Positions 10,187-45,740 of a stretch of DNA of 48,549 nucleotides are shown in pieces. The DNA comes from an uncultured Enterobacteriaceae bacterium (GTDB taxonomy: Bacteria > Pseudomonadota > Gammaproteobacteria > Burkholderiales > SG8-39): contig CAZIXQ010000002.1 in the NCBI GenBank assembly GCA_964543155.1, positions 1-48,549 on the forward strand. Reading direction: 5' to 3'. Position numbers and translations under genes: made by a program. Below the pieces are notes generated by a model. It did not search any database and was not told the DNA's origin. It saw only the letters and a list, made by a program, of their open reading frames with translations. Position 1 is the first letter of the stretch; every line of letters begins with the position of its first letter.

Positions 10187-10750
10187 CTAGGCCTTCGCGT
10201 CCTTCGGGATGAACTTCAGGGCGATGCCGTTGTTGCACCAGCGCTTGCCGGTCGGCCGCGGACCGTCGTCGAACACGTGCCCGTGGTGGCCGCCGCAGCG
10301 CACGCAGTGGTACTCGGTGCGCGGCAGGAGCAGCTTGTAGTCGGTCTTGGTCCCGAAGACGCCGGGGATGGTGGTGAAGAAGCTCGGCCAGCCGGTGTGG
10401 CTCTCGTACTTCATCGCCGAGGTGAAGAGCGGCAGCCCGCAACCGGCGCACGCGAAGATCCCCGCCCGCGACTCGCCGTTGAGCGGGCTCGTCCCGGCGG
10501 CCTCCGTCCCCTCCTCGCGCAGGACGTGGAACTGTGCCCGGTCCAGGCGCTTGCGCCACTCCTCGCCGGACAGCTTGAGCGCATCGGTCGGCGCCGGCAC
10601 CGCGACGCCCTTCGCCAGGAACTCGCGCCAGCCCTGCTGGAGCGCTTCGACCGCCTTCATGTCCGCGGGAAGGGTCTTCTGCGCGCGCGCCGGCAGCGCC
10701 ACGGCCAGACCCGATGCCAGGATGCCGTGCAGCAAGCCACGTCGATTCAT
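10187..10750 (-). CDS. msrB: Peptide-methionine (R)-S-oxide reductase MsrB with an N-terminal twin-arginine signal peptide
   Basis: The signal peptide is MNRRGLLHGILASGLAVALPARAQ. The SelR core has two CxxC zinc motifs (CAGCGLPLF, CVRCGGHHGHVF) and the catalytic RWCNNG. Confidence 0.9.
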   Translation of the reverse strand: MNRRGLLHGILASGLAVALPARAQKTLPADMKAVEALQQGWREFLAKGVAVPAPTDALKLSGEEWRKRLDRAQFHVLREEGTEAAGTSPLNGESRAGIFACAGCGLPLFTSAMKYESHTGWPSFFTTIPGVFGTKTDYKLLLPRTEYHCVRCGGHHGHVFDDGPRPTGKRWCNNGIALKFIPKDAKA

Positions 10751-10913
10751 CGTCGCATCTCCTGATGGTGTGAACCGCAGACCGCGCCGCGCCGCGCGAG
10801 TTCCTCGCCGGCCGGCCCCGGGTCGTCGGTCGCGTTTCCGGGTCCGACGCGTGCGGCGAGGCTAGAATGACCGTGACAGGATACGCGCGCACCGCGCCGA
10901 TGGAAGGTCTGGC

Positions 10914-11201
10914 ATGAGCACCACGCAACCCGGCAAGAGCAACGTCGACCTGGACGAGGTCGCCCGGCTCGTCGCCGCCCTGGAGCGCGACCTCGCGAAG
11001 GTCCGCGCCGGCTCCGGCGACGTCGATACGCTGCGCGGCGAGGTCGCGCAGCTGCGTCAGGCGCTCGCCGCGCCGGAAACGGCGCACGGCGAGGTCCACG
11101 AGGGACTGCACGGCATCCGCGCGCTGCTGCAGAAGGCCGAGGGCGAACTCCTCACCGACGCCGACTACGTCGCGCGCATCGGGCGCATGCTGGGCATGTA
11201 G
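10914..11201 (+). CDS. Small coiled-coil protein, tentatively DUF4404-like
   Basis: The 95-aa product has heptad-like Leu/Ala spacing and ends ...DYVARIGRMLGM. The family name is assigned from memory only. Confidence 0.65.
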   Translation: MSTTQPGKSNVDLDEVARLVAALERDLAKVRAGSGDVDTLRGEVAQLRQALAAPETAHGEVHEGLHGIRALLQKAEGELLTDADYVARIGRMLGM

Positions 11202-11211
11202 CGCAGCGCGC

Positions 11212-13830
11212 TCAGCCGAGCGCGCCGAGCGCCGCAGCGGCGATCGCGTCCCGGTCGACGGCGAAGTATGCGCGCAGGCTCGCGCGCGTGTCGCTGCGCC
11301 CGAAGCCGTCGGTCCCGAGCGCGACGTAGCGTCGCCCTGGGGGCGCGAACGGCCGGACGAGATCGGCCACGGCGCTCACGTAGTCGCTCGCGGCGACGAT
11401 CGGCCCTTCGGTCGCGTCCAGGCAGTGCGCGACCCAGCTCCGCCCGGCTTCGCCGCCGCGCGCCTCGCGCACCGCGCGCGAGGCGCCGCCGGCGACGAGT
11501 CCGTCCCAGCGCAGCTCCGTCCAGCTCGTGACGCTCCACACGTCCGCCGCGACGCCGTGCCCGGCCTCGAGCGCCTCCGCCGCCGAGAGCACCTCGCGCA
11601 GGATCGCCCCCGAACCGAGCAGCTGCACGCGCCGACGCGCGTCTCGCCGCGGGGAGGCGCGCAGCAGGTACATCCCGCGCCGGATCCCCTCCTCCGCATC
11701 CGGCGGCATCTCGGGATGCGCGTAGTTCTCGTTCATCACCGTCACGTAGTAGAAGACGTCCTCCTGCGCCTCGAGCATGCGGCGCATACCATCCTGCAGG
11801 ATCACGACGAGCTCGTGCTTGAAGCAAGGGTCGTAGGCCTTGCAGGTCGGAATCGTGGAGGCGAACAGGTGGCTCGCGCCGTCCTGGTGCTGCAGCCCCT
11901 CGCCCGAGAGCGTCGTGCGGCCCGCCGTCGCGCCGAGGAGGAAACCGCGCGCGCGCGAGTCCGCCGCGGCCCAGGCGATGTCGCCGATGCGCTGGAAACC
12001 GAACATCGAGTAGAAGATGTAAAAGGGCAGCATCGGGGTGCCGTGCGCGCTGTAGCTCGTCGCCGCGGCGAGCCAGGAGGAAATCGCGCCCGCCTCGGTG
12101 ATGCCCTCCTCGAGGATCTGGCCGTCCTTCGCCTCCTTGTAGTACAGGAGCTCGTCGCGGTCCTCGGGCTCGTAGAGCTGCCCGACCGACGAGTAGATGC
12201 CGACCTGCCGGAACAGGTTCTGCATCCCGAACGTGCGCGCCTCGTCGGCCACGATCGGCACGATGCGCTTGCCCACCGCCGGGTCGCGCAGCAGCTGGCC
12301 GAGCATCTGCACGAACACCATCGTGGTGGACTTCTCGCGCCCGTCCGCGCCCGCGAGCAGCGCGGCGAATGCGTCGAGCTTCGGCGCCTCGACGCGCGGC
12401 GCCTGCGCCGATCGCGCCGGCAGGTACCCGCCGAGCGCGTGGCGCCGCGCGTGCAGGTAGCGCATCTCCGGCGACTCGTCGGAGGGCTTGTGGAAGCGCA
12501 GGTGCTCGACGTCCTCGTCGGACAGCGGGAGCGCGAAGCGGTCGCGGAACGCGCGCAGCGCCTCGTCGTCGAGCTTCTTCTGCTGGTGGGTGGTCATCTT
12601 GCCCTGCCCCCAGTGCCCCATGCCGTAGCCCTTCTTCGTCTGCGCGAGGATGACCGTCGGCTGGCCGCGGTGCCGCGTGGCGACGTGGTAGGCCGCGTAG
12701 ATCTTCACCGGGTCGTGGCCGCCGCGGCGCAGCCGGTCGATGTCCTCGTCGGACATCTCGGCGACGAGCGCCCGCAGCTCGGGATACTTGTTGAAGAAGT
12801 GCTCGCGGTTGAACCGGCCGTCGGTCGCGGCGTACTTCTGGAACTCGCCGTCCACCGTCTCGTGCAGCCGCCGCAGGATGACTTCGTCGTGGTCGCGCGC
12901 GAAGAGCGGATCCCAGTCCGAGCCCCACAGCAGCTTGACCACGTTCCAGCCGGCGCCGGCGTACAGGCCCTCGAGCTCCTGGATGACCGATCCGTTGCCG
13001 CGCACCGGGCCGTCGAGCCGCTGGAGGTTGCAGTTGACCACCATGATCAGGTTGTCGAGCCCTTCGCGCGCGGCGAGCGACAGGCCGGCGAGCGACTCCG
13101 GCTCGTCCATCTCGCCGTCGCCCACGAAGCACCAGACCTTGCGTCCGGCGGTGGCGAGCATTCCGCGGTTCTCCAGGTAGCGCATGAAGCGCGCCTGGTA
13201 GATGGCGTTGATCGGCCCGAGGCCCATCGAACCGGTCGGGAACTGCCAGAACGCCGGCATCAGCCACGGGTGGCAGTAGGAGGAGAGCCCCTGTCCCCCG
13301 ACTTCGCGCCGGTAGTTCGCCAGGTGGGCCTCCGTGAGTCGGCCCTCGAGGAACGCGCGCGCATAGACGCCCGGCGCCGAGTGCGGCTGGAAGTACACGA
13401 GGTCGCCGGCCTGGCCCGCCCGGAAGAAATGGTTGAAGCCGACCTCGAAGAGATCCGCGGCCGACGCGTAGCTCGAGATGTGGCCCCCGAGCTCCGGGTG
13501 CGCGCGGTTCGCGCGCACCACCATGGCGAGCGCGTTCCAGCGGATGATCGACGCGAGACGGTGCTCGATCTCGAGGCTGCCCGGGAACTGCGGCTGGTCG
13601 GCGAGCGCGATCGTGTTGCAGTACGGCGTGTTGAGAACCGGCGGCATGCGCACGCGCTTCGCCCGCGCGCGATCGAGCAGCCTGCGCAGCAGGAACGTGG
13701 CGCGCTCCGGACCCTCTTGCTCGACCAGCGCGTCGAACGCATCGAGCCACTCGCGCGTCTCGGCCGGATCGATGTCGGGCGCGGCCACGCGCCAGTAGCC
13801 GGAGAAGGGGGAGTCGGCGAGGTCGGTCAT
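11212..13830 (-). CDS. aceE: Pyruvate dehydrogenase (acetyl-transferring) E1 component, homodimeric type
   Basis: I start at MTDLADSPFSGYW... inside the long ORF 11212..14580. The 872-aa product carries ETREWLDAFDALV, NTPYCNTI, GGHISSYASAADLFEVGFNHFFR, FVGDGEMDEPES and PMLPFYIFYSMFGFQR. Confidence 0.93.
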   Translation of the reverse strand: MTDLADSPFSGYWRVAAPDIDPAETREWLDAFDALVEQEGPERATFLLRRLLDRARAKRVRMPPVLNTPYCNTIALADQPQFPGSLEIEHRLASIIRWNALAMVVRANRAHPELGGHISSYASAADLFEVGFNHFFRAGQAGDLVYFQPHSAPGVYARAFLEGRLTEAHLANYRREVGGQGLSSYCHPWLMPAFWQFPTGSMGLGPINAIYQARFMRYLENRGMLATAGRKVWCFVGDGEMDEPESLAGLSLAAREGLDNLIMVVNCNLQRLDGPVRGNGSVIQELEGLYAGAGWNVVKLLWGSDWDPLFARDHDEVILRRLHETVDGEFQKYAATDGRFNREHFFNKYPELRALVAEMSDEDIDRLRRGGHDPVKIYAAYHVATRHRGQPTVILAQTKKGYGMGHWGQGKMTTHQQKKLDDEALRAFRDRFALPLSDEDVEHLRFHKPSDESPEMRYLHARRHALGGYLPARSAQAPRVEAPKLDAFAALLAGADGREKSTTMVFVQMLGQLLRDPAVGKRIVPIVADEARTFGMQNLFRQVGIYSSVGQLYEPEDRDELLYYKEAKDGQILEEGITEAGAISSWLAAATSYSAHGTPMLPFYIFYSMFGFQRIGDIAWAAADSRARGFLLGATAGRTTLSGEGLQHQDGASHLFASTIPTCKAYDPCFKHELVVILQDGMRRMLEAQEDVFYYVTVMNENYAHPEMPPDAEEGIRRGMYLLRASPRRDARRRVQLLGSGAILREVLSAAEALEAGHGVAADVWSVTSWTELRWDGLVAGGASRAVREARGGEAGRSWVAHCLDATEGPIVAASDYVSAVADLVRPFAPPGRRYVALGTDGFGRSDTRASLRAYFAVDRDAIAAAALGALG

Positions 13831-14004: not shown

Positions 14005-14526
14005 GTGCGCGCGCTGCCGATCCTGCTCCTCGCCATCCCCCTCGCCGCCCTCGGCCAGATCCCCCAGCCCGTGATCCCGCAAACGGTGGTTCCCGGCGCC
14101 GGCGCGCCGGTGGCGCCACAGGGCTATGGCGGCACGGCGATCCTGGCGCCGACGCACGACGGCGGCGGGGTGATCCTGACCCCCGGCCACCCGCCCGCGT
14201 ACGTTGTGCCGCCGGGGCCGAGCGGAGCGGGCGCAGTGATCGCGCCGGGCTACGGGCCAACCTACATCGTGCCGGGCCAGGGCGGCGGCACGACGCTCAT
14301 CACGCCGAACCAGGGCACGACGGTGATCCGCCCGAACCCGATGGGCGGCACCACGATCGTCGGGCCCGGACAGCCGACGACCCTCGTCAACCCCATCCCG
14401 GGCCGCCCCGGCGGCGCCATGATCATCGGTCCGAGCGGTGCCCCCGGGTACGTGGTCCCGACCCCGCATGGCACGGTGGTGCAGCCGTCTGGCGAGATCC
14501 CGCCCACCTACATCTACCGCCCCTGA
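14005..14526 (+). CDS. Secreted Pro/Gly-rich protein composed of about 15 short beta-strand/turn repeats
   Basis: GTG 14005 lies 5 nt after GGAGG (an alternative in-frame ATG is at 13975). The signal peptide is (M)RALPILLLAIPLAALGQ. The rest consists of units such as TAILAPTHDGGG, VILTPGHPPA, TYIVPGQGGG, TTLITPNQG, TTVIRPNPMGG and TTIVGPGQP. It forms the 3' tail of shadow ORF 11425..14526. Confidence 0.65.
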   Translation: MRALPILLLAIPLAALGQIPQPVIPQTVVPGAGAPVAPQGYGGTAILAPTHDGGGVILTPGHPPAYVVPPGPSGAGAVIAPGYGPTYIVPGQGGGTTLITPNQGTTVIRPNPMGGTTIVGPGQPTTLVNPIPGRPGGAMIIGPSGAPGYVVPTPHGTVVQPSGEIPPTYIYRP

Positions 14527-14532
14527 TTCGCG

Positions 14533-14558
14533 CCGCTGTCGACTCGTCGACGCAGCGG
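14533..14558 (+). terminator. GC-rich hairpin just after the repeat-protein stop (CCGCTGTCGAC-tc-GTCGACgcAGCGG)
   Basis: The inverted repeat was read directly, 7 nt after the TGA at 14524-14526. No clear U-tract follows. Confidence 0.4.
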
Positions 14559-14732
14559 TGTGGCGTAGGTCTCGCCGCACACGCGAGTTGACAGTCCGTC
14601 AGGTGGCGCGATCGCGCGGCGCGCCGCACCATCCTGCATCACCGGATGCGCGCTCCGGGGCGGTCTAAGACGACGCGGTGATGGAAGGGCGCGCGACGTT
14701 GTACTAGAGTGGCTGTCCGGCGGAGAACACCG

Positions 14733-15440
14733 ATGGCAACGAATGTCCGGATTGCGGTCCTGCGGCGGGTCGGCGTGATGCTGTGCGCGGTTGCGCTCTG
14801 GCCGTCCGCGGCGCTCGCGCAGGGCTTCAAGTTCGAGAAGGATCCCGGCGCCCAGCAGCGGGCCGCCGAGGAGACGGCGCGCAGGGCACGCGTCGCCGAG
14901 AACCTCTCCACGCCGTGCAAGGAGGCGATCAGGAACAAGAAGATCGCCGTCATCATCGGCGAGGAGCAGTCGAACGGGGTCGTGCTCGCGCGGCAGGAGA
15001 ACTACGGCCCGCACTTCCAGTTGATCAACGGTCGCCTGCAGGCGCTCGGCCTGCGCACCTACACCCCGGACGAGATCCGCAAGCAGATCGCCCAGGCAGA
15101 GATCGACGCCTATTTCAGGAACAACCCGGATGCGGCGCTCTCGGCGTCGAAGCGTCTCGGCGCGAATTTCGTCCTGCGCGGCCTGATCACGTCGCAGGCG
15201 ACCTACAACGCGATCGTGCGCGTGAACCAGGTGTCGGTCGGCATGGGCTTCACGCTTGCGGCCGCCGACGGCCGCACCGTTGCGAACGCGGCGGCGAGCG
15301 CGGCCTCGTACGCCGGCCCGGACGTGCGCGCCATGGCGGTCACCCTGCTCAACGAGCAGGCGGACGAAGTGGTGTCGCGGCTCTACAGCGAGTACTGCCG
15401 GAACGCCGAGGTCGCGGCGCCGGCAAAGGCGCGGAAGTAG
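14733..15440 (+). CDS. Exported alpha/beta protein with an LpoB/CsgG-like pattern (hypothetical)
   Basis: ATG 14733 follows GGAGAA (the ORF track starts at GTG 14709). The signal peptide is MATNVRIAVLRRVGVMLCAVALWPSAALA. The pattern KKIAVIIGEE...LINGRLQALGLRTYTPDE...ANFVLRGLITSQ...VSVGMGFTL recalls small periplasmic CsgG/LpoB-type folds. Two Cys residues could form a disulfide. Confidence 0.75.
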   Translation: MATNVRIAVLRRVGVMLCAVALWPSAALAQGFKFEKDPGAQQRAAEETARRARVAENLSTPCKEAIRNKKIAVIIGEEQSNGVVLARQENYGPHFQLINGRLQALGLRTYTPDEIRKQIAQAEIDAYFRNNPDAALSASKRLGANFVLRGLITSQATYNAIVRVNQVSVGMGFTLAAADGRTVANAAASAASYAGPDVRAMAVTLLNEQADEVVSRLYSEYCRNAEVAAPAKARK

Positions 15441-15497
15441 GCGCCCCGCACCCGGGCGCCTGGCGGCAACGGCTGGACTACTAGCGGAGAGACTGAG

Positions 15498-16319
15498 ATG
15501 AGCCTGTTCAAGCACGGTGTGTTCATGACGGCGGCGCTGTGCGTGTGCGGCGCCACGAGCGCGCAGCCCACATTCCAGAGCGCGTCCCCGACAGCGGGCA
15601 CGGCGACCTCGGAGAAGGCGAACGCGAACGCCGACAAGGCGATGTACCAGGCGATCCAGTACCAGAACGCCGGCAAGCAGGGCCCGGCGCTCGTGGTGAT
15701 CCCGGGAGAGATCAAGAGCAGCAACGCCACCTTCACGCAGAAGTTCGGGCCGACGAACATCGCCGACTTCGCCGAGATCGAGCTGAGCCGCGCGAACTTC
15801 CAGGTCCTCGAGCGCACGAACCTCGGGCCGCTGCTCAACGAGTTCACGCTCGCCTACAACCTCGGCGACCCGAACAAGGCGCGCAACTACCTCGGCATGG
15901 GCAAGCTCCGCTCCACGAAGTACGTGGTCAAGTTCGACATCCTCAAGACCGAACAGGTCGCCGCCGCGCAGCAGGGCTTCGACGGCGCGGCGGTCGGGCG
16001 GGTGATCGGCATCCTCGGTGCGTTCAGCGGGTCGCGCGGCGGCGCACAGGCGGGCGCGATCGGCGACACCGCAGTGGGATCGGTGAAGGTCGGCGACTCG
16101 ACCGGCATCTGGGTCATCGGCATGCGCTACAAGATCATGGACGCCGAGACCACGGAGCAGGTCGCGCAGGGCTACACCGAGGAGAAGATGGAGATCGGCG
16201 CCACCGGGACCTCGGTGATGGGCTTCTCGCAGTCGCAGCAGGGCGGCGTCGGGCTCGACACCATGGTGCAGCGGCTGGTGCAGAAGTCGGTCTGGGAGAT
16301 CGACAGCAAGTACAAGTAG
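15498..16319 (+). CDS. CsgG-family-like exported protein (curli-type secretion channel family, divergent)
   Basis: ATG follows GGAGAG. The N-terminal signal is MTAALCVCGATSA (not a canonical lipobox). PALVVIPGEIKSSN...IADFAEIELSRANFQVLERTNLGPLLNEFTLAY...KYVVKFDILK matches the CsgG-family pattern (AV.PF...l.d.L...L...g.f.vlER..l..ll.E). Confidence 0.75.
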   Translation: MSLFKHGVFMTAALCVCGATSAQPTFQSASPTAGTATSEKANANADKAMYQAIQYQNAGKQGPALVVIPGEIKSSNATFTQKFGPTNIADFAEIELSRANFQVLERTNLGPLLNEFTLAYNLGDPNKARNYLGMGKLRSTKYVVKFDILKTEQVAAAQQGFDGAAVGRVIGILGAFSGSRGGAQAGAIGDTAVGSVKVGDSTGIWVIGMRYKIMDAETTEQVAQGYTEEKMEIGATGTSVMGFSQSQQGGVGLDTMVQRLVQKSVWEIDSKYK

Positions 16320-16343
16320 CCCCCTCACGACCGGCCCCGGCGC

Positions 16344-18746
16344 ATGAGCGAGATCACCAAGCTCGGAAAATTCCAGGTCCGCCGCGAGCTCGGCAAGGGC
16401 GCGATGGGGATCGTCTACGAGGGCCACGACCCGATGATCGACCGGGTCGTGGCGCTGAAGACGATCCGCGCCGAGAACCTGCAGGGCGAGGACGCGCAGG
16501 AGCAGCTGGCGCGCTTCCGCCGCGAGGCCCAGGCGGCCGGCCGGCTCACCCACCCGAACATCGTCGGGATCTACGACTTCGGCGAGGACGCCGGGACCTA
16601 TTACATCGCGATGGAGTTCGTGAAGGGCCGCGAGCTCCAGAGCTACCTGGAGGCAAACGAGCGCTTCGCGCTGCACGACATCGTGCGCATCATGGGCCAG
16701 CTGCTCGAGGCGCTCGACTACTCGCACCGGCAGGGCGTCGTGCATCGCGACATCAAGCCCTCCAACATCATCATCCTCGGCGACGGGACCGCAAAGGTCG
16801 CCGACTTCGGGATCGCGCGGCTGGAGTCGTCGAACCTCACGCAGGCCGGCATGGTGCTCGGCACGCCGAGCTACATGTCGCCCGAGCAGTTCATGGGCCA
16901 GACGGTCGACGGGCGCTCGGACATCTTCTCGGCGGGCGTGATCCTCTACCAGATGCTGACCGGCGAGAAGCCGTTCACCGGTTCGCTCACCACGATCATG
17001 CACAAGGTGCTGCAGGAGGAGCCGCTCCCGCCGTCCAAGCTCAACGTGCAGGTGCCGCGCGGCTTCGACGCGGTGATCCGCAAGGCGCTCGCGAAGCGCC
17101 CGGACGAGCGCTACCAGACCGCGCGCGAGTTCCTCGACGCGGTCCGGCAGGCGGCCACCCAGACCGCGGCGGCCGCCGAGCCGACAATGATCAATCTCGA
17201 CGCGACACTCCCGCCGGGCCATGCAACCGTCGTGCAGAAGCCCGCGCCAGCGGCGACCGAGCGCACGCAGCGCACCGAGCGAATCGCTCCTGCGCCCGCC
17301 GCAACCGTGACGCCGCCCGCCCGCAAGTCGCAGTTCCCGGCGGCCGTGCTCGCGGGCGCCGTGGTCGTGATCGGGGCGGCGGTTGCCGGCGGCTGGTTCA
17401 TGCTGAATCGCGGCGGCGACCGCCCATCGCCGGTCGCCTCACCGCCGAGCGCCACCCCTGCTGCGGCGGCGCAGCCGAGTGCCGCCGCCGCGACGCCTGC
17501 AGCCGCGCCCGCGCCGGCGGCCCCTGCACCTGTGTCAGCGGCGAAGCCGGCCGTCCAGACCGCGCCCGGCACGATCCTCGTCTCCGCGCTCGGCCTCGCC
17601 GACCCCACCGACCCGCGCTACCAGGGCAACCAGGCCGCGCTCGCCGCCGATCTGCGCGCCGACTCGCACGCCCAGGCGGTGGAGAAGGCGATCGGGCTCT
17701 ACCTGCAGCAGCCGTCGCTCTCGCAGCACTACGACCGGCTGCGCGAGAAGCTGCTCGCGCGGAGCGGCGACTACATCTCGACCGTGGTCCAGGAGTCGGA
17801 GCCGAAACTCGGCAAGGACGGGCTCGCGTATCTCACCACGCAGGCGGTCGTGAAGACGCGCGAGGTGCAGAAGTCGCTGAACGAGATGTCGCGCGACGAT
17901 CGCATCAGCTTCATCCGCAACAACGGCGACCCGAAGGTCGCCGTGCGGGTGACCACGCGCGACGCGGACCGCGCGGACGCGCCCGCGCAGGCCTCGCCGA
18001 TCGCGGAGAACCTGCTCAAGGAGCGCATCAAGTCGTTCGGCTTCCGCACCTGGTCCGAGGAAGGCGGCGCGGACAAGACCGCGGACTTCCTGGTCTCGGG
18101 CGAGGCGCGCATCAAGCGGCTGTCGGCGAAGCTCCAGGCATCCGGCCTCACGATCACCAAGTACACCCTCACATCCTGGACGGTGAAGGCCACCGACCGG
18201 GCCACCGGCGAGGAGATCTACTTCAACAACACGCTGCCCAAGAACGTCGGCAGCTGGGCGACGGAGGAGGAGGCGCTGGCGGCGATCGGCACCAAGATCG
18301 CCGAGGAGTTCAACCGGGACTTCTTCCTCCAGCACTTCGGCATGACCGGGCAGAAGGTGGTGCTGAAGGTGACCGGGCTCGACGACCCGGGGTCGGCAGA
18401 GTTGCTCGGCCGCGAGCTGATCGGGCTCGCTTCCGTGGTGTCGAGCACGCCGCGGCCGGGCGCATCGCCACGGGCCTACGACGTGGTGCTGGCCGGAAGC
18501 GGCCTCGCCCAGGACATCGTCGCGAACGGCATCCTCAAGCCGCTCAATGCCAAGCTCGGCGCGGCGTGCTTCACGCTTGGCGCGAGCACCGGCGAAGAGG
18601 TGAACGTGGCGCTCGCGCCGACCTGCGACAAGTCGGTGATGAGCCGGCTCGAGACCGCGCCGCCGGCGGGGCTCTACGCGGCACCGCAGTCGCGCCAGCG
18701 CTCGGTGGTGAAGAACCCCGAGACGCTGAAAAAGATAATGATCTAG
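16344..18746 (+). CDS. Transmembrane Hanks-type Ser/Thr protein kinase with a large periplasmic C-terminal region
   Basis: Kinase motifs are GKGAMGIVYEG, VALK, HRDIKPSNIII, VADFGIAR and YMSPEQ. A single TM (FPAAVLAGAVVVIGAAVAGGWFML) spans about nt 17334-17405. An Ala/Pro linker and a ~445-aa extracytoplasmic region follow. Confidence 0.92.
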   Translation: MSEITKLGKFQVRRELGKGAMGIVYEGHDPMIDRVVALKTIRAENLQGEDAQEQLARFRREAQAAGRLTHPNIVGIYDFGEDAGTYYIAMEFVKGRELQSYLEANERFALHDIVRIMGQLLEALDYSHRQGVVHRDIKPSNIIILGDGTAKVADFGIARLESSNLTQAGMVLGTPSYMSPEQFMGQTVDGRSDIFSAGVILYQMLTGEKPFTGSLTTIMHKVLQEEPLPPSKLNVQVPRGFDAVIRKALAKRPDERYQTAREFLDAVRQAATQTAAAAEPTMINLDATLPPGHATVVQKPAPAATERTQRTERIAPAPAATVTPPARKSQFPAAVLAGAVVVIGAAVAGGWFMLNRGGDRPSPVASPPSATPAAAAQPSAAAATPAAAPAPAAPAPVSAAKPAVQTAPGTILVSALGLADPTDPRYQGNQAALAADLRADSHAQAVEKAIGLYLQQPSLSQHYDRLREKLLARSGDYISTVVQESEPKLGKDGLAYLTTQAVVKTREVQKSLNEMSRDDRISFIRNNGDPKVAVRVTTRDADRADAPAQASPIAENLLKERIKSFGFRTWSEEGGADKTADFLVSGEARIKRLSAKLQASGLTITKYTLTSWTVKATDRATGEEIYFNNTLPKNVGSWATEEEALAAIGTKIAEEFNRDFFLQHFGMTGQKVVLKVTGLDDPGSAELLGRELIGLASVVSSTPRPGASPRAYDVVLAGSGLAQDIVANGILKPLNAKLGAACFTLGASTGEEVNVALAPTCDKSVMSRLETAPPAGLYAAPQSRQRSVVKNPETLKKIMI

Positions 18747-18837
18747 GACCGCGCGGCTGCCGAAGGACGGGGCGCCGCATCGCGAACCCGCGCGTCGCCC
18801 TGCAACAACGCGGCACCCGGGCGCCGCGCCGACCCCC

Positions 18838-19743
18838 TCAGGCCGACCTCGGCCGGTACTCGCAGACGAACTGCACGAGCTCCGCGCCGGGGTCGGACGC
18901 GGAGTGCCCGAAGCTCAGCGTGCCGCGACCGCGCAGCATCGCCTGGTCGCGGCGCAGGACCGTCTCGACGTCGCCCTCGATCGTGATGTACGTCCCGTTG
19001 GTGCTGAGGTCGACGTAGTAGAACTTGTCCCCGCGGCGCTCGATGCGGCCGTGCAGCCGGGAGGCCATCTTGTCGCTGATCGGGATCTGGTGCGCCACGT
19101 CGCGCCCGATCTGGACGCTCGCCAGATCGCCGTCCATCAGCAGCGTGCGCCCGCCGTGGGCGAGGCGCAGCACCGCCTCGGTGGAGGCCTGGGCGCCTTT
19201 CGAGGCGAGCATCGTGACGTCCTCGCCGCTCTGCCACAGGACCTCGCACACCTGCACCTCGGCCTGCTTGCCCTTGACCGCGAGCGCCGCGACCTCGCGC
19301 GTGCCCTCGCGCAGGAGCGGCGACACGCTCGCCACGGTCGCGGCGGTCGTGATGATCTGCCCGCCCTTCGCCAGCCCGGCCATGCGCGCGGCGGTGTTGA
19401 CCGCGTCGCCGAAGTAGTCGCCGTTCTCCTCGAGCGCCGGGCCGTAGTGGAACCCGACGCGGATCGCGAGGCGCGCGTCCGCGAAGGTCGGGAGCGCCGC
19501 AACCCGGGTCTGCATGTCGCTCGCCGCCTGCAGCGCGCTGTCCGCGTCCTTGAAGACCGCCATCACCTCGTCGCCGATGGTCTTCACGACGCGGCCGTGG
19601 TAGGTGGCCACCGCTCGGCGCAGGAGATCGAGCACCTGCTCGACCGCGCGCAGCGCCTGCCGGTCGCCGAGCCGCTCGTACAGCGTCGTGCTGCCGCTCA
19701 CGTCGGCAAAGAGAATGGCAACGGGGCGCGAGCTCGAGGTCAT
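18838..19743 (-). CDS. Class III adenylate/guanylate cyclase domain fused to a C-terminal FHA domain
   Basis: Cyclase motifs are AILFADVSGST, VKTIGDEVMAVF and GDYFGDAVNTAARM. FHA motifs are VQIGRD...ASRLHGRIE...YYVDLSTNGTYI. The gene is convergent with the kinase gene, with 91 nt between the stops. Confidence 0.9.
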   Translation of the reverse strand: MTSSSRPVAILFADVSGSTTLYERLGDRQALRAVEQVLDLLRRAVATYHGRVVKTIGDEVMAVFKDADSALQAASDMQTRVAALPTFADARLAIRVGFHYGPALEENGDYFGDAVNTAARMAGLAKGGQIITTAATVASVSPLLREGTREVAALAVKGKQAEVQVCEVLWQSGEDVTMLASKGAQASTEAVLRLAHGGRTLLMDGDLASVQIGRDVAHQIPISDKMASRLHGRIERRGDKFYYVDLSTNGTYITIEGDVETVLRRDQAMLRGRGTLSFGHSASDPGAELVQFVCEYRPRSA

Positions 19744-19812: not shown

Positions 19813-20172
19813 CTAGAAGCCGAGCGAGGCGACCTCGTCCCGCACGGCGAAGTAGCGCCGCGTGAAGTCGATCGCCGCGGCTTCGTCGAAGCGTCGACAG
19901 GTGTAGAGAATCGCCGAGAAGAAGCGCGCGGAGGACCAGACGTACAGCGAGATGCCCGAATCGATCAGCGGGAGGAACGCGTCGTACCCCTGGTTCTCGG
20001 CTTTCCCCTCGCCCCCGGGCGAGAAGATCGTGGCCTCACCGTAGGCGCGCAGGCCGAGGTGCGCGGCGACGCCGTGGAGATAGCGGTCGACCGCGGCGCG
20101 GTCGACCTCGATCGCGTAGTACCCCTCGACCAGCAGCCGCTGGCGCGTGATCTGCGGCGCGAGGTCCTTCAC
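19813..20172 (-). CDS. S-adenosylmethionine decarboxylase (SpeH/class 1 AdoMetDC)-like pyruvoyl-enzyme family protein, divergent
   Basis: In the 119-aa product, GYDAFLPLIDSGISLYVWSSARFFSAILYTC aligns by eye with the SpeH segment [31 protein letters not shown]. It lies 6 nt downstream of the aminotransferase gene. Confidence 0.75.
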   Translation of the reverse strand: MKDLAPQITRQRLLVEGYYAIEVDRAAVDRYLHGVAAHLGLRAYGEATIFSPGGEGKAENQGYDAFLPLIDSGISLYVWSSARFFSAILYTCRRFDEAAAIDFTRRYFAVRDEVASLGF

Positions 20173-20178
20173 CGTCGG

Positions 20179-21702
20179 TCAGGCGGCGACCGGCGCTTTC
20201 GCCTTCTTCAGTTTCTGCTGCGCGGCCTTCTGGTGCATCTGCGCGTAGGCGCTGTGGGCCGCCGCTTCCGCATCCCCGACGTGCACCGGGTAGCCCATGT
20301 CGGAGAGCACCGAACCGAGCGCGGACAGGCAGAGCATCACGTTGTCGGGGCGGCACGAGTAGCCCATGATGCCGAAGCGCCAGATCTTCCCGGCGAGCGG
20401 TCCGAGGCCCGCGCCGATCTCGAGGCTGAACTCGCTGAGCAGGCGCTTGCGGACTTCGGCCTCCTGCACGCCTTCGGGGCAGCGCACCGCGTTCATCTGC
20501 GGGATCTGGTAGGGCTCCTTCACCAGGAACTTGAGCCCCATCGCCTCGAGCCCGGCCTTGAGCGCGACGTGATGGCGGTGATGGCGGGCCCAGCAGTTCT
20601 CGAGGCCCTCCTCGCGGATCAGCAGCAGCGCCTCGTGCAGCGCGAACAGCGAGTTGGTCGGCGCGGTGTGATGGTAGGTGCGCGTCGTTGCGCCCCAGTA
20701 GCCGAGCAGCAGGTTCATGTCCATGAACCAGCTGTGGATCTTGTCCTTGCGCGCCTTGACGTAGTCGACGACGCGCTCGGAGAAGGACACCGGCGAGAGC
20801 CCGGGCGTGCACGACAGGCACTTCTGGCTCGCGGAGTAGATCGCGTCGACGCCCCACTCGTCCACGAGGACCGGGCAGCCGCCGAGCGAGGTGACGGCGT
20901 CGACGATCGCGAGCGCGTCGTACTTGTGCGCGAGCGCCACCAGCGCCTTCGCGTCGGAGAGCGCGCCGGTGGAGGTCTCGGCGTGCACGAACGCGACGAG
21001 GCGCGCGTCGCGGTTCTGCTTGAGCGCGTCCTCGACCTTGTGCGGATCGACCGGCTCGCCCCACTCGTGCTCGACGACGACGGCCTCGCCGCCGCAGCGC
21101 TCGACGTTCTCGATCATGCGTCCGCCGAACACGCCGTTGCGCGCGACGATCACCTTGTCGCCCGGCCGCACCAGGTTGACGAAGCAGTACTCCATCCCCA
21201 CCGAGCCGGGGCCGGACACCGGGAACGTCAGCGGGTTCTTGGTCTGGTAGACGTAGCGGAGCAGGGACTTCAGCTCCTCCATCATCTCCACGAAGACCGG
21301 ATCCAGATAGCCGATCGCGGGCTGGCTCATCGTCGTGAGCACGCGCGGATGGATCTCGGTCGGACCCGGGCCCATCAGCGTGCGCTGCGGAGGATGGAAC
21401 GAGGAGATGCGCTTCGCCGGGGCGTACGGGTTCATGTTGTCAGTTCCTGCAATGGGAGATCCGAATGGGGATTCGTCTTCGCCGCGCGACTTCACCCGGA
21501 TGGGCTTTGCCGCGTAGGCTTCGTTGAGGATGTCGGTCGCCGCGACCTGGCCGCCGGTGAGGTGCTCCACCTCGACCGCCCAGCGCGACGGGATGTAGCC
21601 GGACTTGACCCAGTGGCTGACCACCGCGCGGTCGAGCTTCATCCGGCGGGCGACCTCGGCCTGGCTGCCGAAGATCGAGACGAGGCGCTCGGCGCAGTTC
21701 AT
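20179..21702 (-). CDS. Class V (AGXT/serine-pyruvate type) aminotransferase with an in-frame N-terminal Cro/YdaS-like HTH extension (aminotransferase alone = 20179..21435)
   Basis: The aminotransferase core has LMGPGPTEIHPRVL, AFVHAETSTG and YSASQKCLSCTPG (PLP-binding Lys). The upstream 89 codons in the same frame have no stop and encode MNCAERLVSIFGSQAEVARRMKLDRAVVSHWVKSGYIPSRWAVEVEHLTGG. An internal ATG at 21435 sits behind AGGAA. Confidence 0.7.
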   Translation of the reverse strand: MNCAERLVSIFGSQAEVARRMKLDRAVVSHWVKSGYIPSRWAVEVEHLTGGQVAATDILNEAYAAKPIRVKSRGEDESPFGSPIAGTDNMNPYAPAKRISSFHPPQRTLMGPGPTEIHPRVLTTMSQPAIGYLDPVFVEMMEELKSLLRYVYQTKNPLTFPVSGPGSVGMEYCFVNLVRPGDKVIVARNGVFGGRMIENVERCGGEAVVVEHEWGEPVDPHKVEDALKQNRDARLVAFVHAETSTGALSDAKALVALAHKYDALAIVDAVTSLGGCPVLVDEWGVDAIYSASQKCLSCTPGLSPVSFSERVVDYVKARKDKIHSWFMDMNLLLGYWGATTRTYHHTAPTNSLFALHEALLLIREEGLENCWARHHRHHVALKAGLEAMGLKFLVKEPYQIPQMNAVRCPEGVQEAEVRKRLLSEFSLEIGAGLGPLAGKIWRFGIMGYSCRPDNVMLCLSALGSVLSDMGYPVHVGDAEAAAHSAYAQMHQKAAQQKLKKAKAPVAA

Positions 21703-40561: not shown

Positions 40562-41446
40562 CTACTGCGTCACTCGCGGCGCGGAGACGCCGTGCTTGCC
40601 CGCGAGGCTCGCGGCGAGCGCCTCGGCTTCCGCCCGCGAGGGAAGCTGCGCGATGCGAACGTCGTACGCGCGCCGGCCGTCCACCCGCCTGGGTGCGAGC
40701 TCTGCGGCGTAGCCGGCGGCGCGCACGTCCTGGTACACGCGCAGCACTTCGTTCTCCGACTCTGCGCTCGCGAGCACGACTTTCCAGCGGCCGCCGCGGC
40801 GCGCCGCACCCGCACCGGCCGCGATCTCCGTCTCCGTCGCCCACTGCTGGAGCTGCTCGGGCTTGACCGGCTGCACCGGCAGCGGGGGCTGGCCGCGCGG
40901 CGCGATGAAGAACGAGAGCGGCTGGTCCATCGTCAGGGGCGGATCGCCCGCACGGGCCACCTCGATCCGGCCCTCGATCAGGCACACGATGTCGCGGTCG
41001 GCGGCGGCCTTGCCCCAGAGGTCGGTGCCGCGGATGCCGGCGGTGACCGTGGCGACGCTGATGCTCACCTCGCGCCGGCGCGCCTTGGCCAGGGCGTCGG
41101 TCGTGAAGCGGAACGCGCCGGCGAGCAGGTTCAGGGTCGAGGCGAACACGTTGTCCCTGCGCAGCTGCGCCTGCGCGATCCTGAGCTGCGCGTTCTCGCC
41201 GAGCTTCACGCTGCTCCCTTCGGCGAGCTTGAGGAGCAGGCGCGCGTTCGCGCCGGTGCGCAGGTCGTCGTCCGGCGCGAGCGCCATGCCGGGCGCAAGC
41301 GGCACGCGGCTGCCGCCGCGCTCGACCCACGCGGGCATCTGCACCGCCTCGACCACCGCGGGCGGCGCGGCGCGCCTGGGTTCGTCTGCGGCGTGCACCG
41401 CGGCCGCGGCGGTCGCCAGGACGGCGACGGCGATCAAGCGCTTCAT
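40562..41446 (-). CDS. FecR-domain protein with a C-terminal SPOR (peptidoglycan-binding) domain, exported
   Basis: The signal peptide is MKRLIAVAVLATAAAAVHA. The FecR-like segment is LRTGANARLLLKLAEGSSVKLGENAQL. The SPOR-like tail is WKVVLASAESENEVLRVYQDVRAAGYAAEL...YDVRIAQLPSRAEAEALAASL. Confidence 0.8.
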   Translation of the reverse strand: MKRLIAVAVLATAAAAVHAADEPRRAAPPAVVEAVQMPAWVERGGSRVPLAPGMALAPDDDLRTGANARLLLKLAEGSSVKLGENAQLRIAQAQLRRDNVFASTLNLLAGAFRFTTDALAKARRREVSISVATVTAGIRGTDLWGKAAADRDIVCLIEGRIEVARAGDPPLTMDQPLSFFIAPRGQPPLPVQPVKPEQLQQWATETEIAAGAGAARRGGRWKVVLASAESENEVLRVYQDVRAAGYAAELAPRRVDGRRAYDVRIAQLPSRAEAEALAASLAGKHGVSAPRVTQ

Positions 41447-41555: not shown

Positions 41556-44213
41556 ATGATCGACGCAATGGAGCCGGTCTACCACCCGGGACGGGTCGAG
41601 CGCGACGCGCAGGCGTTCTGGGACGAGACGCGCGCCTTCCGCGCCGTCGAGGACGCGGACCGGCCGAAGTACTACTGCCTGTCGATGTTCCCCTACCCGT
41701 CGGGCAAGCTCCACATGGGGCACGTGCGCAACTACACGATCGGCGACGTGCTCACGCGCTACTACCGGATGCGCGGGCGCAATGTGCTGCAGCCGATGGG
41801 CTGGGACGCGTTCGGGCTGCCGGCGGAGAACGCCGCGATCGCGAACGGCGTGCCGCCGGCGCAGTGGACCTACGAGAACATCGCCTACATGAAGTCGCAG
41901 CTGCGGTCGCTCGGATTCGCGATCGACTGGGACCGCGAGCTCGCGACCTGCAAGCCGGACTACTACCGCTGGAACCAGTGGCTGTTCCTGCGCATGCTCG
42001 AGAAGGGTATCGCGTACAAGCACACCGGGGTGGTGAACTGGGACCCGGTCGACCAGACCGTGCTCGCCAACGAGCAGGTGATCGACGGCCGCGGCTGGCG
42101 CACCGGCGCGGTGGTCGAGAAGCGCGAGATCCCGATGTACTACCTGCGCATCACGCAGTACGCGGAGGAGCTGCTCGCGGCCCTCGAGCGGCTCCCCGGC
42201 TGGCCCGAGCGCGTGAAGCTGATGCAGGCGAACTGGATCGGCCGCAGCGAGGGCGTCAACTTCGGCTTTCCCTACGAGATCGACGGCGAACGCAAGCTGC
42301 TGCGCGTCTTCACGACGCGCGCCGACACGATCATGGGCGTGACGTTCAACGCGATCGCCGCAGAGCATCCGCTCGCGACCCGGCTCGCGCGCGACGACCC
42401 GAAGCTCGCGGCCTTCATCGCCGAGTGCAAGGCGGGCTCGGTCATGGAGGCCGACCTCGCGACGATGGAGAAGAAGGGCGTTCCCACCGGCTTCTTCTGC
42501 ACGCACCCGCTGACCGGCGAGCCGGTCGAGATCTGGGTCGGCAACTACGTGCTGATGGGCTACGGCGAGGGTGCCGTGATGGGCGTTCCGGCGCACGACG
42601 AGCGCGATTTCGCGTTCGCCAAGAAATACGGGCTTCCGATCAAGCCGGTGATCGCGCTCCCCGGCAAGGTCTACAGCACCGACGAATGGCAGGAGTGGTA
42701 CGCGGACAAGGAGCACGGCACCTGCGTCGGCTCGGGGAAGTACGACGGCCTCAACTACAAGGGCGCGACCGACGCGATCGCCGCCGACCTGAAGGCCAAG
42801 GGCCTGGGAGACAAGCAGGTGCAGTGGCGGCTGCGCGACTGGGGCATCTCGCGCCAGCGCTACTGGGGCACGCCGGTGCCGATCGTGCACTGCGCGGCCT
42901 GCGGGGACGTGCCCGTGCCGGACCGGGATCTGCCCGTGGTGCTGCCCGAGGACTGCGTGCCCGACGGCAGCGGCAATCCGCTCGCCAGGCGCGCCGAGTT
43001 CGTGTCCACGCCGTGCCCGAAGTGCGCCGGCCCCGCGCGGCGCGAGACCGACACGATGGACACGTTCGTCGACTCGTCGTGGTATTTCAGCCGCTTCGCC
43101 AGCGCGGACGCCGCGGGCGCGATGGTGGACGCGCGGGTGAACTACTGGCTGCCGGTCGACCAGTACATCGGCGGCATCGAGCACGCGATCCTGCACCTGC
43201 TCTACGCGCGCTTCTGGTCGAAGGTGATGCGCGATCTCGGCCTGGTGAGCTTCGACGAGCCGTTCGCGAACCTGCTCACGCAGGGGATGGTGCTGAACGA
43301 CATCTTCCAGAGGAAGGGCGACAAGGGCGCAATCACCTACTTCGCGCCCGAGGAGGTCGAGGTTCAGCGCGACGCGGAAGGCCGGATCGTCGGCGCGCGC
43401 GCGCGCTCGGACGGCCAGCCAGTCGAGTACGCCGGCATCGGCACGATGTCGAAATCGAAGAGGAACGGCGTCGATCCCCAGGCGCTGATCGAGAAGTACG
43501 GCGCCGACACCGCGCGCTTCTTCATCATCTTCGCGAGCCCGCCCGAGCAGACGCTGGAGTGGAACGACGCCGGCGTCGAGGGCGCCTCGCGCTTCCTGCG
43601 CCGCGTGTGGGGGCTCGCCTACGAGCTCTGCGCCCTCCTCGGCGCGGAGTCGCAGCGGCGCGCGGGCGCGTACGCGCAGTACCTCTATCCGGCCGATTGG
43701 CCCAGCCGTCACCCCCAGCTCGCCGCCGTGCGCCGCGAGATCCACGCCAACGTGAGGCAGGCGACCTACGACATCGAGCGCCAGCAGTTCAACACCGTCG
43801 CCTCGGCGGCGATGAAGATCTACAACGCGCTGGCGACCGTGCCCCGCGGTCCGGACGCGGCGCCGGCCGCCGCGACCCTGCTGCACGAGGGCTTCTCGAT
43901 CCTTCTGCGCGTGCTCTACCCGATCGCGCCGCACATCGCGCACGCCCTGTGGCGCGGCCTCGGCTATGCCGGCGACCCGATGGGCGCGAGCTGGCCGGAG
44001 GCCGACCCGGCCGCGCTCGAGGCCGACGAGATCGAGCTCGTGCTCCAGGTGAACGGGAAGCTGCGCGGCCACCTGCGCGTCGCCAAGGACGCCGACAGGG
44101 CGGCGATCGAGAAGCTCGCGCTCGGGCACGACGCGGTCGCGAAGCACGCCGAGGGGCGGCCACCGAAGAAGGTGGTCGTGGTGCCGGGACGGCTGGTGAA
44201 CGTGGTAGTCTGA
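41556..44213 (+). CDS. leuS: Leucine--tRNA ligase
   Basis: The HIGH-type motif is [15 protein letters not shown] and the KMSKS motif is [10 protein letters not shown]. The product is 885 aa. The second ATG at 41568 (MEPVYHPG...) matches the usual LeuS N-terminal length and may be the true start. Confidence 0.95.
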
Positions 44214-44217
44214 GCGC

Positions 44218-44724
44218 GTGATTGGAGCCGTGACGCGATTCGCGCTGATCCTCGCGCTGTGCGCGACGACGGCGGCGTGCGGCTTCAAGCTCCGCGGCCA
44301 GCAGACCTTCCCGTTCGACGCGATCAGCGTGCCGCTCAACACGCCGCTCGGGTTCGAGCTCAAGCGCAACATCGCCGCGGCCAACGAGCAGGTCAAGCTG
44401 GTCGACAGCAGCGCCGACGCGGACGCCGTGCTGTCGATCCTGAGCGAGGCGCAGGAGAAGGTGATCCTCTCCCTCAACACCCAGGGCCGCGTGCGCGAGT
44501 ACCAGCTGCGCTATCGGGTGGTGTACCGGGTCGCGAGCCCCAAGGGCGCCGACTTCATCGCGCCCACCGCGGTCGTCCTCACGCGCGACATCACCTTCAA
44601 CGACCAGGTGCTCGCGAAGGAGACCGAGGAGGCGCAGCTCTACCGCGAGATGCGCTCCGACCTCGTGCAGCAGATCGTCCGGCGGCTCGGGGCGGCGAGG
44701 CCGGTGGTCGCGGACGCCGAGTAG
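44218..44724 (+). CDS. lptE: LPS-assembly lipoprotein LptE
   Basis: GTG start. The lipoprotein signal ends ...TTAACGFKLRG (the CGF.LRG hallmark). The position after leuS and before holA is conserved. Confidence 0.88.
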   Translation: MIGAVTRFALILALCATTAACGFKLRGQQTFPFDAISVPLNTPLGFELKRNIAAANEQVKLVDSSADADAVLSILSEAQEKVILSLNTQGRVREYQLRYRVVYRVASPKGADFIAPTAVVLTRDITFNDQVLAKETEEAQLYREMRSDLVQQIVRRLGAARPVVADAE

Positions 44725-44735
44725 ACCCCGCCGCG

Positions 44736-45740
44736 GTGCCGCAAGTCAGAGCCGACCAGCTCGAGGCCCAGCTCTCACGCACCCTCGCGCCGCTGTACGT
44801 GGTGCACGGCGACGAGCCGCTGCTCGCGATGGAGGCCGCCGACGCGATCCGGGCGAAGGCGCGCGCGGAGGGCTGCTCGGAGCGCGAGGTCCATCTCGTC
44901 GAGCGAAGCTACGACTGGGGCCGCCTCGCCGCGGCCGCCGCGTCGCTGTCGCTCTTCGCAACGCGCAGGCTGATCGAGCTCCGCATCCCCTCGGGCAAGC
45001 CCGGCACCGAGGGCGGCGCGGCGATCGCCGCCTACTGCGCCGCGCTCCCGCCCGACGTCGTCACGCTCGTCACGCTGCCGCGGCTCGACCGCGCCGGCCA
45101 GAACTCGGCCTGGTTCGGCGCCCTCGCCGGCGCGGGTGTCGTGGTGAACGTGTTCCCGATCGAGCGGCGGACGCTGCCGCTGTGGATCGGCGCCCGCCTC
45201 GCGCGCCAGAAGCAGCGCGCGGCCGAGGACGCGCTCGCGTTCGTCGCCGACTGCGTCGAGGGGAACCTGCTCGCGGCGCACCAGGAGATCCAGAAGCTCG
45301 GCCTGCTCTACCCGCCCGGCGAGCTCTCCTTCGAGCAGGTGCGCGACGCGGTGCTCGACGTTGCGCGCTTCGAGATCTCGCAGCTCTCGGAGGCGATGCT
45401 CGCGGGCGACCGCGGCCGCCTCGCGCGGGTGCTCGACGGGCTCGCGGGCGAAGGCGAGGCCCCGCCGCGCGTGCTCTGGGTCATGTCCGACGACGTGCGC
45501 GCGGTGGCGCGCCTGCAGCAGGGGCTCGCCGCGGGACGCAACGCCGCCGACCTCTTTCGCGAGCACCGCGTCTGGGGCGAGGCGCGCCAGCGCCTCGTGG
45601 CCGCCGCCGCGCGCCGCATGGGGCGCGCGGCGCTCGACGCCGCGCTCGCGCAGGCGGCCGCGGTGGACCGGACGATCAAGGGTCTCGCGAAGGGCGACCC
45701 GTGGGACGAGCTGCTGCAGCTCGGTTTGCGCTTCGCGTAG
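44736..45740 (+). CDS. holA: DNA polymerase III subunit delta
   Basis: I start at a GTG inside ORF 44259..45740. [26 protein letters not shown] and [12 protein letters not shown] are present. The product is 334 aa, and leuS-lptE-holA synteny is conserved. Confidence 0.88.

Follow-up and report, generated by a model that had tools for sequence, protein, structure and literature searches.

What a bacterial receptor kinase perceives outside the cytoplasm, and to which partner it passes the signal, is the question raised by five neighbouring genes (i to v) in a stretch of 48,549 nt (hereafter the window), which covers positions 1 to 48,549 of contig CAZIXQ010000002.1 from assembly GCA_964543155.1. 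Genes i to iii code for exported proteins, gene iv for a Hanks-type Ser/Thr kinase with an extracytoplasmic region and gene v for a predicted class III nucleotidyl cyclase with an FHA domain. Receptor kinases of Gram-negative bacteria are poorly understood and few of their periplasmic partners are known; here, such partners are named by comparative genomics. The comparison of the locus with its relatives identified ii, iii and the extracytoplasmic module of iv as an old and conserved genetic trio of extracytoplasmic proteins, and the kinase fusion as a derived, lineage-specific state of Casimicrobiaceae-like Burkholderiales.

A scan that took one genome per species located relatives of the module at 325 places, a distribution that is at odds with the description of the block as accessory in the original prediction for this DNA, and 80 of these loci were retrieved. 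All 80 belong to Burkholderiales, Casimicrobiaceae or Betaproteobacteria metagenome-assembled genomes (MAGs), and genes ii and iii precede the kinase in every one of the 71 loci with enough flanking sequence, so that the expected co-occurrence of CsgG-like genes with orthologous kinases was borne out. The module family is small (278 clusters when 1.84 billion representative proteins were searched exhaustively), and its variants include free-standing proteins of ~390-480 aa that have a signal peptide but lack a kinase, one protein with a C-terminal membrane anchor and one fused to a caspase (Peptidase_C14) domain. Kinase-free loci were surveyed on the contigs of these module variants and in 42 more loci from a metagenome scan. 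Among the 49 further loci (L083-L131), 34 have gene ii, kinase-free ones included, and a kinase-free operon in the order ii-module-iii was present in L091-L097, L099-L106 and L108, at GC contents between 36 and 71%. One kinase-free trio stems from a Deltaproteobacteria MAG, the proteins of which are 59% (iii), 46% (ii) and 41% (module) identical to those of the window. It is because the same trio exists elsewhere as a kinase-free operon that the fusion is regarded as derived. The extracytoplasmic location of the three proteins is supported by their signal peptides, by the lipobox of iii in kinase-free loci and by the invariant cysteine pairs of ii and the module.

The module was also found in other company. 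In L088 the order is permuted to iii-kinase::module-ii (hmmsearch E 1e-97 and 2e-64), with a kinase domain 31% and a module 40% identical to those of the window, and this kinase::module gene may represent an independent fusion. A module::Peptidase_C14 gene in L084 (3372-5543) is directly preceded by a GNA1162-like gene and a genuine CsgG gene; these two were considered as orthologues of ii and iii and dismissed, as direct profile matching was not significant and the context is only analogous. The module gene of L086 (10231-13167) is found next to genes for WD40-caspase, Gly-zipper and TPR-OmpA-FlgO-CsgG proteins and an alpha-2-macroglobulin. Judging from L084 and L086, the module may also feed periplasmic protease outputs. 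That it is fused to a Hanks kinase in one lineage and, in a different lineage, to a caspase-like protease speaks for a use as sensor or adaptor. In L100 the trio belongs to a longer envelope operon, which also encodes an HtrA-like protease and an LPP20-like protein as well as a second pair of CsgG and FlgT_N/LipL46-like proteins; more generally, LPP20-like genes accompany kinase-free trios, and OmpA-domain genes are located near trios in 11 loci. One retrieved locus (L006) is titled 'uncultured Enterobacteriaceae bacterium', against betaproteobacterial titles elsewhere; its proteins are 56-86% identical to those of the window and the title is probably a binning or label error.

Gene iv, with its Pkinase domain (Table 1), all kinase motifs intact (K39, HRD134, DFG154, SPE179) and a single hydrophobic helix, is by these features a Hanks-type Ser/Thr protein kinase with one transmembrane segment, as had been predicted. 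In NCBIfam the kinase domain came closest to the PknB/PASTA kinase model, at a score below its cut-off. Between the kinase domain and the membrane, the motif [DE][AP]T[LVIM][LIV] occurs at T281, followed by a variant (DATLP) at T289, and most orthologues (juxtamembrane segments of 67 kinase-type loci) carry one or two such motifs, which makes these threonines candidate autophosphorylation or FHA docking sites. On the periplasmic side there is a linker in which 21 of 57 residues are alanine and 13 proline; it is found in all orthologues at variable length and, if extended, would be long enough to cross much of the periplasm.

The module that follows comprises ~390 aa and contains just two cysteines (C742, C761), both of them invariant in the family. 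An AlphaFold2 (AF2) model (pLDDT 85.9, pTM 0.77) weakly but consistently matched HpaA, PelC and LptE in Foldseek (E 1.7e-4 to 2e-3), i.e., the alpha/beta class of outer-membrane lipoproteins. The window module has no direct Pfam match, and the window kinase matched NCBIfam LipL46 at E 0.003. The module alignment could be aligned by hhalign over 338 columns (98.2% probability, E 5e-14) with a 403-aa protein of L100, which passes Pfam FlgT_N (30.3 vs 28.8 bits) and matches LipL46 at 8e-12; owing to this homology with an FlgT_N-passing protein, the module was placed in an FlgT_N/LipL46-like family. The idea that the kinase ectodomain is built from segments resembling ii or iii had to be dropped, as pairwise BLASTP and profile-profile comparisons were empty. 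Neither Pfam nor NCBIfam has a model whose cut-off is reached by ii, iii or the module, and sequence-profile searches of the PDB with the three families yielded nothing significant. In L082 (8781-11176; ENA long-contig assembly) the kinase gene falls into two open reading frames (ORFs), one for the kinase and one for the module, with a 4-nt overlap, probably by an assembly frameshift. A SulP transporter that carries a cNMP-binding domain (cNMP, cyclic nucleoside monophosphate) is encoded within 8 kb in this locus.

The protein encoded by gene iii scored 14.5 bits against Pfam CsgG (PF03783), below the gathering cut-off of 20.8 (E 0.022), and sub-threshold matches of the same kind were obtained for 37 of 61 homologues (best E 2.7e-4). 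The core of its AF2 model (pLDDT 70-85; insertions < 50) gave CsgG (4uv2) as the top 12 Foldseek matches (best E 1.6e-7, probability 1.0, TM-score 0.36-0.49), followed by CT253, GNA1162, FlgT (3w1e, 8z5n), TraT, PelC, HpaA and TolB. According to this model, iii has a CsgG-type alpha/beta fold, a class whose members (CsgG, TolB-N, PelC) are typically oligomeric rings under the outer membrane. Two Gly-rich, poorly modelled insertions (aa 156-202 and 234-251) are located at positions that look topologically equivalent to those of the membrane hairpins of CsgG. The signal peptide in the clade of the window ends in a signal peptidase I site (AxA|QPTF) with no conserved cysteine and no lipobox, and iii of this clade is predicted not to be a lipoprotein; an LxGC lipobox is present in the homologues from kinase-free loci and from L088. 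The original description of iii as an exported, CsgG-family-like protein therefore holds for the fold and the signal peptide, while family membership at the Pfam cut-off and, in this clade, the lipobox are lacking. No csgA/B/E/F-like genes were seen near iii (neighbour gene list; rest of the window by eye only). L105 harbours a second copy of iii (10415-11431), a lipoprotein with a C-terminal PG_binding_1 domain (4e-15), which hints at a contact of the trio with peptidoglycan. Among the names given by JGI to iii homologues, some read 'CsgG' and several 'transposase-like protein' (cluster of L100 9402-10163), the latter apparently spurious.

Gene ii agrees in length and in its signal peptide (signal peptidase I type) with the exported protein originally described, and a cysteine pair (C62/C222) is invariant among its homologues. 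No Pfam domain was found in any of 2751 homologues. Sub-threshold LpoB (PF13036) matches appeared in 15 of 56 homologues (best E 0.044), and none in the protein of the window itself; an LPP20 (FlgP-family) match was likewise absent from Pfam searches with ii. We regard ii as a weakly LpoB-like periplasmic member of the trio. The sole recurrent PDB match, a resemblance of aa 113-164 to the N-terminal motif of S-adenosylmethionine (SAM) synthetase (E 0.02), was judged fortuitous.

Gene v combines, within one protein, a class III cyclase and an FHA domain, both recognized by Pfam (Table 1) and both with their key residues conserved, as had been proposed. In 37 orthologues the cyclase residues D14, D58, K54, D109, N116 and R120 are at least 97% conserved; we take D14/D58 to bind metal, K54/D109 to form the ATP-specifying adenine pair and N116/R120 to stabilize the transition state, so that v is a predicted adenylate cyclase. 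The FHA residues R214, S228, H231 and N249 are conserved to the same degree (at least 97% in the 37 orthologues), and the domain is a predicted phosphothreonine reader. Of 76 genome loci, 32 have gene v adjacent and convergent to the kinase, as do all eight kinase-type loci from metagenomes, which makes v the commonest further neighbour of the kinase-type cluster. On a neighbour-joining tree of the module, v-adjacent loci are found on the basal branches as well as on many derived ones, and v-less loci form derived subclades (46 kinase-type loci without v versus 38 with it, plus 3 with v in which the kinase region is cut off). Since the adjacency is basal in this tree and persists although different loci and lineages have different genes beyond v, it is old and selectively retained, though not universal, and the neighbourhood survey thus supports the co-occurrence of kinase and FHA-cyclase that had been expected. 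All this makes v a plausible downstream partner of the kinase. In 14 loci, v-like matches were located upstream of ii at a distance of ~3 kb; they turned out to be cyclase-only paralogues devoid of an FHA domain and were discarded. A membrane-bound class III cyclase (Guanylate_cyc 8.5e-31) is encoded convergently, right after iii of a kinase-free trio, in L094 (4172-5620, minus strand) and L104 (10237-11685, minus strand); the matches in the two loci are identical, and the loci look like one organism and are effectively one observation, which echoes the cyclase association of the kinase-type loci.

Gene i was missed by a simple GC3-minus-GC2 gene caller (GC at third minus GC at second codon positions), which fails on its Pro/Gly-rich frame and over-extended the neighbouring aceE, and was therefore checked separately. 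With a GC3 of 0.91, and with five stops in the antisense frame that shares its wobble position, the sole other frame of equally high GC3, it is considered a real coding frame; an antisense ORF within gene i at 14262-14474 (minus strand, 70-81 aa, GC3 0.94), which a GC3-based caller had picked out, was rejected as a frame artefact of the Pro/Gly-rich gene. The start at GTG 14005 given originally is backed by orthologues, which have an ATG at the aligned position, while the JGI call begins at 13975. The protein consists of ~10-residue strand/turn units (GGTT-hhh-x-P) and has no Pfam, NCBIfam or PADLOC match. Its occurrence upstream of ii is limited to L001-L018 and L031, i.e., to the subclade of the window; most kinase-type loci lack it, and no copy was detected in the kinase-free trio loci. 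From this distribution, gene i is a lineage-specific companion outside the conserved core, which speaks against its role as a general cargo. The GC-rich hairpin noted between i and ii does exist, and its stability does not exceed the shuffled background (z = -1.2; 22 of 200 shuffles equal or better). As a terminator it was rejected, given that shuffled sequence folds as well, a T-run is missing and a terminator scan made no call there.

The coordinates and spacing of the five genes, with gaps of 57 nt (ii-iii), 24 nt (iii-iv) and 91 nt (iv-v, convergent), proved correct in both the ORF list of the window and the gene calls on a JGI contig (sample 3300043177). The GC content of the block (0.67-0.74) is the same as in the remaining window (~71% overall), with no compositional break or acquired-island signature in the GC content along the window, and no mobile-element genes flank the cluster (gene list and translations by eye). 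The genes aceE, aminotransferase and ttcA stand beside it only in the closest relatives, the outer flanks being otherwise variable among loci.

Table 1. Positions in the window of genes i to v, of their domains and of the hairpin after gene i.
Feature	Coordinates	Strand	Remarks
Gene i	14005 (GTG) or 13975 (ATG) to 14526	+	Exported Pro/Gly-rich repeat protein
GC-rich hairpin	14529-14562	+	Just 3' of the gene i stop codon; indistinguishable from background
Gene ii	14733-15440	+	235 aa; periplasmic alpha/beta protein (predicted)
Gene iii	15498-16319	+	273 aa; CsgG-fold protein (modelled)
Gene iv	16344-18746	+	800 aa; Hanks-type Ser/Thr kinase plus extracytoplasmic module
Hanks kinase domain of iv	16371-17126	+	aa 10-261; cytoplasmic; Pfam Pkinase 3e-54
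Juxtamembrane region of iv	17127-17333	+	aa 262-330; Thr motifs
Transmembrane helix of iv	17334-17402	+	~aa 331-353; hydrophobic stretch FPAAVLAGAVVVIGAAVAGGWFML, read off the sequence
Periplasmic Ala/Pro linker of iv	17409-17579	+	57 aa
Three-domain module of iv	17580-18743	+	aa 413-800; FlgT_N/LipL46-like; extracytoplasmic
Gene v	18838-19743	-	301 aa; class III nucleotidyl cyclase plus FHA (predicted)
Class III cyclase domain of v	19264-19734	-	aa 4-160; Pfam Guanylate_cyc (PF00211) 6e-19
FHA domain core of v	18982-19113	-	aa 211-254; Pfam FHA (PF00498) 9e-9

How could these parts work together? We lean, with the balance tipped slightly in its favour, towards the view that the trio constitutes one envelope assembly, which the fused kinase reads and reports to the FHA-adenylate cyclase v. 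The three-way genetic linkage, the fold classes, the derived nature of the fusion and the intact catalytic and binding residues are results of the comparison; the formation of a complex, the sensed input and the step from kinase to cyclase we infer. The assembly would consist of ii (as a disulfide-bonded periplasmic partner of the other two), iii and the module, located at or under the outer membrane; by the long Ala/Pro linker and one transmembrane helix, the module would be joined to the cytoplasmic kinase and would turn it into a transmembrane sensor. The state of the assembly, i.e., the contact of the module with ii and iii and, via them, with the outer membrane or cell wall, would set the self-association and autophosphorylation of the kinase, whereupon juxtamembrane phosphothreonines (in the D/E-A/P-T-h-h motifs) would recruit the FHA domain of v. 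The cyclase would then make cyclic AMP (cAMP), so that the state of the envelope becomes a cAMP signal. A more specific version, which we offer as a tentative possibility that could well fail, sees in the trio a non-flagellar relative of CsgG/PelC/FlgT-type ring or scaffold assemblies that acts as a trans-envelope sensor of integrity or distance, where iii and ii hold or release the tethered module and thereby switch the inner-membrane kinase that signals to the FHA-adenylate cyclase. If true, this would link outer-envelope mechanics directly to cAMP, in a form that has not been described for bacteria.

Several points weigh against the preferred reading of one envelope assembly that signals through the kinase to v. 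About half of the kinase-type loci have no v in the immediate neighbourhood, class III cyclases are frequent in these genomes (cyclase-only paralogues near the cluster in 14 loci), which raises the background for a chance adjacency, and convergent genes are not co-transcribed. The fold matches of the module are weak (TM-score 0.2-0.5), the AF2 model of iii is of medium quality (mean pLDDT 59), and ii, iii and the module share no mutual sequence or profile similarity, hence no sign of contact emerges from sequence. A PP2C phosphatase or a cNMP-binding receptor was not seen in the window (gene list; rest by eye only).

The facts on gene v may also be read with the trio and the kinase as a real envelope sensor and v as a mere syntenic neighbour, the kinase acting on other substrates such as cell-wall or outer-membrane biogenesis factors, in the manner of LpoB-type regulation or as a Gram-negative counterpart to PASTA kinases. 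The 46 kinase-type loci in which v is not beside the kinase fit this, as do the weak LpoB likeness of ii, the sub-cut-off PknB/PASTA match of the kinase, the peptidoglycan-binding domain on the iii paralogue of L105 together with the OmpA-domain genes near trios, and the v-less locus L082, where other FHA proteins (FHA/T6SS_FHA_C) and a PP2C phosphatase are encoded within 8 kb. We nevertheless consider it unlikely, though deserving of attention, as the adjacency of v maps to basal branches and survives the turnover of the genes beyond it, the phosphothreonine-binding residues of the FHA domain are strictly conserved and no alternative substrate is conserved beside the cluster. Its first part, a trio read by a kinase, is shared with the reading that we prefer, in which v receives the signal.

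The role first proposed for the locus, with iii as a CsgG-like secretion channel, i as its cargo and the kinase as a monitor of channel or cargo, appears improbable to us. It draws on the CsgG-type fold of iii with its two poorly modelled Gly-rich insertions at positions like those of the CsgG hairpins, and on the exported repeat protein directly upstream, which is kept in the subclade of the window despite differing outer flanks. Set against this, i is missing from most kinase-type loci and was undetected in kinase-free trio loci, iii stays below the Pfam CsgG cut-off and lacks, in the clade of the window, the lipobox of its kinase-free homologues (CsgG reaches the outer membrane through lipidation), genes resembling CsgE/F/A/B were not found nearby, and the fold is shared by proteins that are not channels (LpoB, TolB-N, LptE, FlgT, GNA1162). 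An anti-phage module made of a PD-T4-6-like Ser/Thr kinase and a Pycsar-like cyclase was suggested by PADLOC (kinase vs PD-T4-6 E 2e-109; cyclase vs PycC weak, 7e-9), and we give it hardly any credence. Both matches are due to generic domains, Hanks kinase and class III cyclase, the top alignment with PD-T4-6 reaching aa 407 and stopping short of the module, and the defence reading was discarded as generic domain homology; in addition, the cluster shows a housekeeping-type stability across hundreds of genomes, the GC content is uniform across the window with no flanking mobile-element genes, the conserved partners of the kinase are exported envelope proteins, and the cyclase combines a K/D adenine pair with an FHA domain, no Pycsar-type effector (cNMP-sensing) gene being nearby. 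As a general observation, the PD-T4-6 models of PADLOC match generic Ser/Thr kinases, and such a match alone is no proof of a defence gene.

The closest precedent for the logic of a trio, a kinase and an FHA reader is the TagQRST-PpkA-Fha1 pathway of the H1 type VI secretion system (H1-T6SS) of Pseudomonas aeruginosa, in which the outer-membrane lipoprotein TagQ and the periplasmic TagR act upstream of PpkA and Fha1 and which reports envelope perturbation (PMC7817224). In this pathway, as would be the case in the window, envelope proteins stand upstream of a single-pass Hanks kinase and a phosphothreonine is read by an FHA domain. PpkA has a vWA-type periplasmic domain, whereas the periplasmic part of the kinase in the window is an FlgT_N/LipL46-like module, which belongs to the trio of partner families, and the FHA protein of the window is a predicted adenylate cyclase, where Fha1 is a T6SS scaffold. 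T6SS genes, TagQ/R/S/T and a PppA-type phosphatase were not present in the gene lists of the window (partly read by eye). FHA and class III cyclase domains also meet in one protein in the Cya1-type adenylate cyclases of cyanobacteria, which contain an FHA domain; in the window the FHA domain is C-terminal and the gene is convergent beside a specific receptor kinase. A literature search for FHA-cyclase precedents gave nothing useful, and searches for a Hanks kinase connected with CsgG-like partners did not turn up a paper.

For the trio itself, parallels exist on the level of folds and gene sets. With the CsgG/HfaB family (curli channel), iii shares the alpha/beta fold; it has two insertions at positions that resemble those of the CsgG membrane hairpins, and its distant homologues are lipoproteins; it differs in being sub-threshold in Pfam, in having no lipobox in its clade and in the lack of curli partner genes nearby. 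FlgT, FlgO and FlgP form periplasmic rings under the outer membrane, and this flagellar outer-ring set of Vibrio resembles the trio in that the module family is homologous to an FlgT_N-passing protein, iii matches FlgT structures (3w1e, 8z5n), the module of L086 has a neighbour with FlgO and CsgG domains and LPP20-like genes occur by kinase-free trios. Unlike this set, the loci examined have no flagellar genes nearby, and ii is without an LPP20 match. Module family members and a paralogue match the NCBIfam model of Leptospira LipL46 over 200-300 residues (E 1e-5 to 8e-12), at scores of 24-45 bits that are far under the family cut-off of 400; we know of no function assigned to LipL46 itself. 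A widespread uncharacterised three-gene cluster for a CsgG/HfaB-family protein and two lipoproteins, one of them a GNA1162 homologue, affects poly-N-acetylglucosamine (PNAG), pili and biofilm in Acinetobacter baumannii (bioRxiv 10.1101/2021.05.19.444899). Like the trio, it is a three-gene exported envelope set around a CsgG-family member, and L084 pairs GNA1162-like and CsgG genes with a module gene; ii and iii of the window are below the GNA1162-like and CsgG Pfam thresholds, and the module and kinase fusion are not part of the cluster as described. The trio of the window is a different family set with a related theme.

While the logic from kinase to FHA domain and the fold classes are known, the trio, the receptor-kinase fusion and the cyclase output have not been described. 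What emerges is a widespread three-protein envelope system without an assigned function, distributed from Betaproteobacteria to Deltaproteobacteria-type genomes. If the link to the FHA-cyclase is true, it would be a rare case of Ser/Thr phosphorylation feeding straight into cyclic-nucleotide synthesis, and it would apply to abundant uncultured soil bacteria (Casimicrobiaceae-like Burkholderiales).

Some genes outside the cluster are worth recording. The class V aminotransferase (AGXT/BhcA-like) at 20179-21702 (minus strand) has an unusual N-terminal helix-turn-helix (HTH) extension of ~65 aa that matches Cro/YdaS-type HTH models (YdaS_toxin 7e-9, P22_Cro 2e-5), and the fusion is 94-96% conserved in most of the closest relatives. 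Between v and this gene, a 119-aa protein (19813-20172, minus strand) with a sub-threshold match to AdoMet_dc (SAM decarboxylase; E 3.6e-4) is restricted to the closest relatives (L001-L004, L014). By eye, a FecR/SPOR-like protein is encoded at 40562-41446 and leuS-lptE-holA follow in canonical arrangement at 41556-45740, with a lipobox-bearing LptE at 44218-44724; the organism thus has a standard LptE besides the LptE/PelC-like domain of the kinase module.

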